From assembly GCA_937896115.1 (NCBI GenBank), contig CALBLB010000196.1, positions 1 through 50,531 on the forward strand: a stretch of 50,531 nt of DNA. Direction: 5' to 3'. Shown here in pieces: positions 38,739 to 39,149 of this stretch. The notes under the pieces are model-generated. The model saw only the letters and a program-made list of their open reading frames with translations, was not told the DNA's origin and did not search any database. Each line of letters starts with the position of its first letter. Position 1 is the stretch's first letter. Source of the DNA: an uncultured Succinatimonas sp. (lineage in GTDB: Bacteria; Pseudomonadota; Gammaproteobacteria; Enterobacterales; Succinivibrionaceae). The translations under genes were made by a program, and so were the position numbers.

Positions 38739-39149
38739 TCAGTTAATCTTCATTGCTTTGGTAGCCACATCCATGGCACCAGCTTTGCTGGTCATGGCTG
38801 ACGCTCCGCCATCTGCAGCTCTGGCATCAGTTTTACTTGCCTGAGCCTCAGTATCAGAAGCTTCTACAGCACCTTGCTGTCCTCTTACATCATCTTTGGC
38901 CAAAGCAGCTTCATTTTTGTTTCCTGCAGTTTCCTTTTTATCCAAAACCGTTTCATCTTTGGTAGGAGTTACCTCTTTAACGCCTACAGGATCTGCACTA
39001 CGTTTATTAGTTACTGAAAGATTAGTTATCATTTGAGTAGCTGCTGCCATAACTCCTTTCATGGCAATCGATCCTGCAATGGAAACTGCGGCATTTCTTA
39101 TATATTTCCGTTGCTCGTCATCCAACTTCAGTTCTTCATTATCCGACAT
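38739..39149 (-). CDS. Small heptad-repeat protein ending in -KIN (candidate spike-tip protein), copy 1
   Basis: 136 aa with its own GAGGA RBS; hydrophobic segment AAVSIAGSIAMKGVMAAATQMI followed by 11 heptads. Paralog of 43991..44404. Confidence 0.8.
   Translation of the reverse strand: MSDNEELKLDDEQRKYIRNAAVSIAGSIAMKGVMAAATQMITNLSVTNKRSADPVGVKEVTPTKDETVLDKKETAGNKNEAALAKDDVRGQQGAVEASDTEAQASKTDARAADGGASAMTSKAGAMDVATKAMKIN

Follow-up and report, generated by a model that had tools for sequence, protein, structure and literature searches.

The spike of the bacterial type VI secretion system (T6SS) is usually treated as a single VgrG chain that runs from the hub to the tip, with PAAR as the sole add-on. 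Related puncturing devices are organised differently: in phage T4, with its gp5C needle and gp5.4 tip, and in phage P2, with gpD and gpV, hub, spike and tip are separate chains, and needles of the T4 gp5 type are built of 8-residue units. Francisella has a short needle-only VgrG with the hub supplied by PdpA, and evolved VgrGs carry C-terminal extensions (actin cross-linking, lysozyme-like, metallopeptidase or fusogenic). Here we analyse a stretch of 50,531 nucleotides from an uncultured Succinatimonas sp. of the Succinivibrionaceae (assembly GCA_937896115.1, contig CALBLB010000196.1; in the following 'the window'), which holds a T6SS operon with two vgrG genes. An initial annotation, made by a model from the sequence alone, had noted a gene for ~136 amino acids (aa) directly after each vgrG and had proposed that it encodes a separate needle tip, and both genes, small1 and small2, are indeed found behind atypical long vgrG genes. 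The best overall explanation for small1 and its paralogue is that they represent a C-terminal module split off from an atypical long VgrG and act as the end of the spike (probability roughly 0.45); the part of this reading that assigns the module to the spike, as the detached end of VgrG, is very likely correct.

Homologues fused to VgrG C-termini in other genomes had been suggested as a check, and such proteins exist. The initial search at similar protein length returned three clusters only, but the search among longer proteins gave 31 matches, namely 29 VgrGs of 1188-1277 aa (PF05954) and two fragments. In these 29 VgrGs, the last ~115-130 residues are homologous to the entire small protein, including the helix, the heptads and a terminal K-L-N. 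Genome searches identified further fused forms of 1171-1221 aa; in four genomes of one genus, which have free copies too, the open reading frames (ORFs) measure 1185-1230 aa. The module is at the extreme C-terminus in every fused homologue (29 VgrGs, seven ORFs and nine long representatives from the profile search described below). The fused forms represent two independent lineages: one has a short linker, the other acidic tandem repeats of 13 residues, which precede the module in variable copy number. A scan of the Succinivibrionaceae detected the module in 44 of 98 genomes and 9 of 17 genera, nearly always as a free gene with an ORF of 127-180 aa, and the free form is thus commoner than the fused form. 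The interchange of fused and free forms is a natural 'Rosetta stone', indicating that VgrG and the module bind each other. The T6SS lineage of these gut and rumen bacteria has a conserved extra spike component that is interchangeably free or fused to VgrG, and a split VgrG is well supported by the fused relatives together with the synteny and co-occurrence data below.

A broken or frameshifted vgrG in this assembly would be a simple alternative, and the assembly is fragmented (394 contigs, 96% complete). However, 40 of the 44 family genomes with the module have the split form, the window has it twice, as paralogues, and real intergenic spacers are present at the junctions. The initial annotation had described both junctions as out of frame with stop codons and had assigned copy 1 its own ribosome binding site, and all of this was confirmed: VgrG1 ends with a TAA stop, followed by a 26-nt spacer with AGAGGA 7 nt upstream of the ATG of small1, while VgrG2 ends with TAG, and the small gene is in a different frame in both cases. 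Both genes are also under purifying selection: in comparisons with their orthologues at locus L003 of a related genome, dN/dS is 0.044/0.59 (small1) and 0.009/0.084 (small2), indicating that both are real and constrained, and that the free module evolves under purifying selection. For practical purposes the assembly explanation is refuted. One detail of the initial annotation needs correction: the second copy had been given as 43991..44404, and the gene is confirmed, but position 44404 is the second ATG and the first is at 44416.

The two copies are 63% identical (84 of 134 residues), and this identity is unevenly distributed: 21 of 56 residues are identical in the N-terminal part and 63 of 80 in the C-terminal heptad part, the latter exactly as previously counted by hand. 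VgrG1 and VgrG2 share 29% identity and are, as had been noted, far more divergent than the small proteins. Both are atypical: the only Pfam domain detected is the hub domain Phage_GPD, neither an OB-fold (oligonucleotide/oligosaccharide-binding) nor a gp5 needle domain was detected by Pfam, and the VgrG models of NCBIfam score far below their cut-offs. The tails are of low complexity and rich in Gln, as had been described, with a Gln/Pro/Gly-rich repeat in VgrG1 and an acidic sequence in VgrG2. The tail repeat of VgrG1 stands at the same place as the 13-residue repeats of the fused forms (P0006, P0011 and P0034; 1199-1277 aa). The linker before the module is a tether, presumably disordered, that is polymorphic in length, as repeat copy number varies at this same place, and that was left on the VgrG body after the split. 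Some internal VgrG regions gave weak hidden Markov model matches to the module and were considered as duplicates of it, but these matches have negative scores, sit in the helical insert of VgrG and were treated as compositional noise.

T6SS genes are present at every module locus examined, and no homologue among these loci lies outside a T6SS cluster, which the initial annotation had named among the findings that would speak against its proposal. The usual gene order is vgrG, module and long DUF6931 (followed by the gene at the TssJ position, tssK, tssL and tssM). Variants are DUF6931, vgrG, module (three loci), vgrG, module, PAAR (one locus) and, in one genus, module, DUF6931, tssA, vgrG. At two loci (L006:9388-10408 and L007:9385-10408) the order is PAAR, module, DUF6931, with ~250 nt between and no intervening vgrG; the module thus stays in the core cluster even when vgrG is elsewhere. 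Fused VgrGs are directly followed by PAAR at four of four loci, with DUF6931 ~10 kb away on the same contig, and a single DUF6931 serves clusters with up to three fused VgrGs. One of these clusters has, beside its three fused VgrGs, a fourth VgrG-like ORF (L011:9327-12977; 1216 aa, Phage_GPD) that does not match the module profile and has L-K-I-N nine residues before its C-terminus; it may end in a degenerate module.

Among the 44 module genomes, 43 have TssK and 42 have DUF6931; the two exceptions for DUF6931 are a genome that is 81% complete and a genome with a broken fragment only. The long form of DUF6931 is found without a module in one incomplete genome only. Fourteen TssK-positive genomes of the family have no module; 13 of these have a more canonical TssK, with scores of at least 203.7 bits, while all module genomes have scores of at most 199.7 bits. 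This separation indicates that the module belongs to one of two T6SS lineages in the Succinivibrionaceae.

The comparison with the other, canonical lineage is the most telling result. Canonical loci of the family have the order VgrG (689-691 aa), short DUF6931 (190-192 aa), PAAR (100-101 aa) in three of three cases, and these VgrGs carry Gp5_trimer_C and DUF2345. DUF6931 was also found in 13 of 399 other sampled Gammaproteobacteria genomes. At 12 such loci (L037-L048), it is directly behind a canonical vgrG in seven cases and directly ahead of PAAR in three; of the remaining loci, three have another T6SS gene nearby and two have none within 1.5 kb. DUF6931 thus normally trails the end of vgrG; that it trails the module here is what one would predict for a module that is itself this end. 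The placement of DUF6931 behind vgrG and ahead of PAAR suggests that it acts at the spike end, and is a first functional lead for this uncharacterised family, which stands behind vgrG and often ahead of PAAR in several Gammaproteobacteria; an excerpt from one preprint names DUF6931 once. The short DUF6931 genes of the canonical loci are at L032:7704-8276, L033:7352-7930 and L034:7306-7881.

The long DUF6931 of the module lineage has ~380-580 aa, with an insertion of ~130 residues inside the Pfam domain. The AlphaFold2 model of DUF6931 no. 1 of the window is all-alpha (predicted local distance difference test (pLDDT) 79.9). Foldseek found nothing in the PDB for this model at E<=0.001, and a search of the PDB by sequence also returned nothing. 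The closest structures in VIA-align, all with scores below the level that is meaningful for helical proteins with this tool, are two DUF416 proteins (3f7c_A, Z 7.1, root mean square deviation 3.8, 131 residues aligned; 2q9r_A, Z 7.0), chain B of a T6SS deaminase-toxin entry (7jtu_B, Z 6.9) and tetratricopeptide repeat-like proteins (Z 4.5-5.8). We also considered that DUF6931 could be an adaptor needed solely for free modules; this was rejected, as a long DUF6931 is also found on the contigs of clusters whose VgrGs are fused.

The VgrG bodies of this lineage are hypervariable, with 21-29% identity across loci whose TssK, TssM and ClpV are 55-87% identical (VgrG1 and VgrG2 of the window, L008:6201-9644, L014-L029). 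Between genera, PAAR is 64-75% identical, the module about 30-57% and the VgrG bodies about 22%. The fused VgrG P0011 illustrates the contrast: its body shares only 28-30% identity with the VgrGs of locus L015, but its module shares 72-76% with the free modules at that locus. Polymorphic effectors have the opposite pattern, whereas hypervariable bodies with a conserved end are in keeping with a part that must match conserved partners. Evolved VgrGs are similar in that the fused forms have an extra domain behind the needle, connected by a linker, but differ in that the module is more conserved than the VgrG body, matches no enzymatic family, is usually a separate gene and is found in the core cluster across 9 of 17 genera.

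These data also bear on the possibility that the small protein is spike-borne cargo, i.e. a small membrane-active effector or translocation device that rides on VgrG, covalently attached in fused and non-covalently in free forms, with a helix that inserts into the target membrane after firing and a DUF6931 protein that shields the helix in the producer, like a chaperone, or protects the producer. The order vgrG, small gene, partner gene, present twice in the window, resembles a vgrG-effector-partner island, and the helical DUF6931 model has the T6SS toxin entry and the DUF416 proteins as its neighbours, although weakly for helical proteins. Moreover, excerpts from one paper describe T6SS effectors whose N-terminal transmembrane helices depend on specialised chaperones (PMC7773334). 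The likeness to these Eag (DUF1795)-chaperoned effectors, as far as these excerpts describe them, is a hydrophobic helix on a protein associated with the spike tip and a conserved neighbour gene that might shield it; the differences are that the module has, according to Pfam, neither a PAAR_motif or prePAAR region nor a toxin domain, that DUF1795 has no match among the scanned neighbour genes and that the helix is lost in fused forms. More generally, no enzyme-like or toxin family in Pfam, NCBIfam or PHROGs matches the module. The distribution of DUF6931 is also unlike that of a partner that shields or neutralises cargo: it trails canonical VgrGs that have no module, it is distant from the fused VgrGs and shared by several of them, and no orphan partner genes were seen, so that module and DUF6931 are not the always adjacent and specific pair expected of an effector with its immunity protein. 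Together with the conservation pattern, where a conserved carrier with polymorphic cargo would be expected and the reverse is seen, this makes the cargo explanation unlikely, and the N-terminal helix, its main support, is considered next.

A hydrophobic Ala/Gly-rich segment before the heptads had been described for the window copies, and it is present. With a hydrophobic segment defined as a 19-residue Kyte-Doolittle mean of >=1.6, 66 of 95 sequences of the family have one: 66 of 88 free forms and none of the seven fused forms of one genus. No charged residue is found in 44 of these 66 segments (44 of 95 sequences), and this transmembrane-like character in most free forms is what a membrane-active cargo would have. 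However, five further fused representatives have values between -0.04 and 0.93, while the fused type with repeat linkers reaches 1.62, and the best segments of the window copies, at 1.41 and 1.09, are below the usual transmembrane threshold. The suggestion of a membrane-inserting helix is thus possible for the free forms but weakened by the fused ones: membrane insertion is not the conserved function, and the loss of the helix argues against a membrane-inserting warhead as the common function of the family. Since the helix is pronounced in free modules and disappears with covalent tethering, an attachment device is the best interpretation, ahead of a conserved working part, and the pattern suggests a non-covalent anchor. 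The VgrG bodies have a hydrophobic helical domain (~870-1090) just ahead of the last strands, in addition to a long helical insert (~570-740), and we infer that this domain could receive the module helix. The same helix data make it very unlikely that the small protein is a single-pass inner-membrane protein of the producer that aids spike docking or assembly at the membrane complex and is not fired: such a role would agree with the gene adjoining the TssJ-position gene, tssK, tssL and tssM in many loci, but in the fused forms the module terminates a spike protein that is cytoplasmic and secreted, and the hydrophobic helix is missing.

The C-terminal motif is shared with canonical needles. Canonical VgrGs had been said to end with an xKIN-like strand, and this agrees with our data: the terminus is I-N in 64 and [ILMV]-N in 71 of 87 relatives of a canonical VgrG, drawn from many taxa; 23 end with [KR]-[ILMV]-N, and 54 with [MKR]-I-N (M-I-N 34, K-I-N 12, R-I-N 8). 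The canonical VgrGs of the Succinivibrionaceae end with T-R-I-N and both window copies of the module with K-I-N. Within the module family, [ILMV]-N is at the exact end in 39 of 95 sequences and within the last four residues in 50 of 95, compared with 9 of 318 background ORFs and 1 of 20 VgrG bodies of the split type, which have unrelated low-complexity tails. The module thus has the conserved C-terminal [ILMV]-N of VgrG needles.

The 7-residue units of the initial annotation were tested on the 95-sequence family alignment with 5000 shuffles and exceed chance. Hydropathy power at period 7 is 34.8, a value reached by 1 of 5000 shuffles, and power at period 7/3 is 65.2, reached by none; the information content has the same pattern. 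Tandem repeats were not found in the DNA inside the small gene, indicating that the periodicity is maintained at the protein level, and the array is almost free of indels across the family, which means that its length is fixed. Three unit positions are conserved and occupied by small residues, namely 2 (Thr or small), 4 (Ala/Thr/Val) and 6 (Ala 56%, Gly 15%); mixed hydrophobic residues are found at position 7, and polar or charged ones at 1, 3 and 5. This alternation at i, i+2 and i+4, reset every seven residues, is as expected for short strands with tight turns, and the composition of the repeat (Ala 17.7, Thr 11.4, Ser 9.7, Gly 7.3, Asp 7.3, Asn 6.8 and Leu 4.8%) fits short strands better than a coiled coil. 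We slightly favour a beta-type repeat over a coiled coil. A heptad beta-roll is known from the Hep_Hag/YadA-head family (PF05658); this family is not among the Pfam families matched at E<=10 by 29 members of the module family.

An Ala-rich helix followed by a weak polar coiled coil would instead make the module an alpha-helical tether, i.e. a flexible adaptor that connects the VgrG C-terminus to another conserved T6SS part, such as DUF6931, the baseplate or the membrane complex, with neither needle nor PAAR contact. In favour of this, the repeat contains much Ala besides numerous Glu, Lys and Gln residues, fused forms have a flexible linker ahead of the module, needle repeats show no profile similarity to it and the AlphaFold2 monomer is all helix, but the confidence of that model (pLDDT 52) is too low to count. 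The periodicity is the stronger argument on the other side: the 3.5-residue harmonic of an a/d coiled coil has a power of 8.7, which is reached by 636 of 5000 shuffles and thus not significant, while the 7/3 harmonic is, and the small residues are conserved at i, i+2 and i+4. A core rich in Leu, Ile and Val is also absent, with Leu at 4.8% and Thr, Ser, Gly, Asp and Asn together at 42.5% of the repeat. We consider the helical tether as improbable as the cargo explanation.

If the module is the detached end of VgrG, three copies would ride on the distal end of the VgrG trimer, with the hydrophobic N-terminal helix as a non-covalent anchor to the VgrG body that would be dispensable, and polar, once the two are fused. 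The fixed array of 11 heptads would form a beta-type repeat with small residues (Thr/Gly, Ala/Val, Ala) on one face and would end with [KMR]-I-N-COOH, as canonical VgrG needles do. The conserved end would be the surface that faces the conserved partners, the single PAAR of the genome and/or the DUF6931 protein, and with such a common end one tip could serve highly divergent VgrG bodies. The presence of one PAAR for two VgrG/module pairs is circumstantial evidence in this direction. Part of one paper describes that PAAR binds VgrG at its C-terminus (PMC6960284); docking of PAAR on the module is possible, but on balance doubtful. The most far-reaching version is a three-part spike, in which a separate and exchangeable trimeric beta-repeat end docks PAAR, plugs into VgrG via the hydrophobic helix, serves as a universal tip adaptor for one PAAR and one DUF6931, and is a narrower version of the gp5-type triple beta-helix, with units of seven residues, that current predictors miss. 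The universal adaptor is suggested by the conservation of the end piece while VgrG bodies diverge to 22-30% identity; as a whole, this version is tentative and has the odds against it.

Several observations weigh against the module as a needle-like spike end. Sequence similarity to needles is lacking: in hhalign comparisons with the C-termini of canonical VgrGs, the module profile reached E values of 0.33, 0.35 and 0.68, and Gp5_trimer_C (PF22178), Gp5_C (PF06715) and DUF2345 (PF10106) have no match in 29 members even at E 10. The terminal motif is degenerate, as only 39 of 95 sequences have it exactly and others end with K-M-T or K-I-T, and the fused forms of one genus have 1-2 residues beyond it. 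About 47% of the repeat are helix-favouring residues (sum from the composition), so that a helical reading stays possible, and the AlphaFold2 monomer, based on five sequences, has helices at residues 11-51, 79-91 and 97-135, at a confidence too low to be used. The spectral control on end-aligned canonical VgrG tails has no significant peak, probably because ungapped, end-anchored averaging blurs indels, and is uninformative. The last VgrG strands share a conserved S-S-x-x-L-[EN] stretch, and PAAR could dock there. In fused forms, a linker and an alpha-helix lie between the last VgrG strands and the heptads, which makes a simple coaxial continuation of the needle unlikely: the module would have to stack or fold back on the spike. 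A homotrimer prediction (three copies, 95-row alignment, no controls) had a score of 0.00 and a fold confidence <50, and argues neither for nor against a trimer or a fold. A beta-helix is thus what periodicity, composition, position and terminal motif suggest, while fold and homology are not demonstrated. Of the proposal of a separate needle tip, the separately encoded C-terminal piece of VgrG stands, carried by the fused relatives, the T6SS loci, the K-I-N end and the beta-type periodicity; the trimeric beta-helix and the PAAR platform were not shown, given the helical low-confidence model and the three hhalign nulls.

Compared with the canonical VgrG needle, the module is alike in being the C-terminal end of VgrG when fused, in its short periodic units with alternating small or hydrophobic residues and a K-I-N end, and in its DUF6931 and PAAR gene neighbours; it differs in having its own gene in most genomes, in the 7-residue units, in the absence of profile similarity and in the helix, joined in fused forms by a flexible linker, that stands before it. 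As in T4 and P2, the puncturing device would consist of several axially stacked polypeptides, and the T4 needle is likewise a separate chain after cleavage of gp5; the T4 pieces arise, however, by proteolysis of one chain and not from two genes, and searches of PHROGs and phage records found no relation. In Francisella, the functions of one VgrG chain are also divided between two gene products, but there the division falls between hub and needle, and here behind the needle body, towards the distal end; the only match of Francisella type (NF041249, E 0.023, far below the cut-off) is to residues 742-858 of the VgrG1 body and not to the module. The initial annotation did not know of a description of this architecture, and a full-text literature search (supplements outside its scope) agrees, finding no description of the module family or of a separately encoded VgrG end. 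The needle tip with a PAAR platform is a plausible and partly supported inference, with shape and partners unproven and with a family confined to one bacterial family among the genomes searched. If the module is the real distal end, this would change how spike assembly, PAAR loading and VgrG diversification are read in this lineage, and a new repeat type would be added to the folds of puncturing needles.

The atypical VgrG with its module belongs to a T6SS lineage found only in the Succinivibrionaceae among the genomes searched. The module was not found in the sample of 399 other Gammaproteobacteria genomes, nor did tblastn detect it in records of phages or plasmids. Among 1.84 billion representatives, a profile search gave 131 clusters at E<=0.001 and 103 at E<=1e-10, most of them of 120-180 aa; nine longer representative clusters are VgrGs or VgrG fragments that end in the module. 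Five other long representatives were dropped as low-complexity chance matches (P0143, P0144, P0147, P0149 and P0151: an RNase III with a Pro/Ala/Lys tail, a pacifastin protein, a coiled-coil/leucine-rich repeat protein and two short-repeat proteins). No Pfam family matches the module at E<=0.01, with needle families absent even at E<=10 among the 29 members; NCBIfam gave only noise (E 0.013-0.036), PHROGs two single-member matches without function (E ~0.002) and no phage relation, the family profile found nothing below E 1.4 among PDB sequences, and the ESM Atlas had no usable match. NCBI annotates small1 as 'hypothetical protein [Succinatimonas sp.]'. Three bins labelled Firmicutes, Akkermansia muciniphila and Bacteroidaceae (L006, L007 and L008) hold the cluster with ClpV 86-87% and TssK 68% identical to the window, and are likely mis-binned contigs. 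A module fragment with two in-frame TAA stops (G029:C5:10580-10831), in a genome without TssK or DUF6931 match, looks like the remnant of a lost T6SS cluster.

The operon is entirely on the minus strand of the window, in the order ClpV-type ATPase, PAAR, VgrG2, small2, DUF6931 no. 2, VgrG1, small1, DUF6931 no. 1, TssJ-position lipoprotein, TssK, TssL and TssM (Table 1).

Table 1. Features of the T6SS operon, with coordinates in the 50,531-nt window
Feature	Coordinates	Strand	Basis or remark
small1, putative stand-alone VgrG C-terminal module, 136 aa	38739..39149	-	ORF; homologous to C-termini of long VgrGs
N-terminal Ala/Gly-rich helix of small1, ~residues 11-51	38997..39119	-	AlphaFold2 (low confidence); hydropathy period ~4 in the family
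Heptad array of small1, residues 57-136, 11 units and terminal K-I-N	38742..38981	-	Family-wide periodicity
small2, second copy, 141 aa from first ATG; alternative start 44404	43991..44416	-	ORF
VgrG1 body, 1184 aa, atypical, without canonical needle end	39176..42730	-	Phage_GPD match only; low-complexity tail
VgrG1 tail, 36-nt x4 tandem repeat, Gln/Pro/Gly-rich product	39204..39346	-	At linker position of fused relatives
VgrG2 body, 1251 aa	44475..48230	-	Phage_GPD match only
Long-form DUF6931 no. 1, 377 aa; 11-nt spacer from small1	37594..38727	-	PF22011 match in two stretches
Long-form DUF6931 no. 2, 376 aa	42844..43974	-	59% identical to DUF6931 no. 1
PAAR, 96 aa from second ATG; ORF extends to 48621	48280..48570	-	PF05488
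Lipoprotein at TssJ position	37027..37584	-	No family match in Pfam and NCBIfam scans
TssK	35643..37013	-	Pfam/NCBIfam
TssL/DotU	34823..35611	-	Pfam/NCBIfam
TssM	30382..34842	-	Pfam/NCBIfam
ClpV-type ATPase, truncated by window end; upstream gene of the operon	48572..50530	-	86-98% identical to ClpV-position proteins of related loci

In the source genome, VgrG, the module and the long DUF6931 are each encoded twice and PAAR once, the PAAR gene being the single match in a whole-genome scan; PF05488 scores slightly below its cut-off on the PAAR protein and above it in the genome scan. Directly 3' of tssM is an ORF of 386 aa (29160..30320, minus strand) that matches no Pfam or NCBIfam family and is 94-95% identical in two related loci (L003 and L009). 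Genes with the domain pair AAA-ATPase_like and PDDEXK_9 recur in or beside these T6SS clusters in several genomes (L016:9849-11633, L023:8377-10047, L035:5780-9165 and L036:5103-5826).

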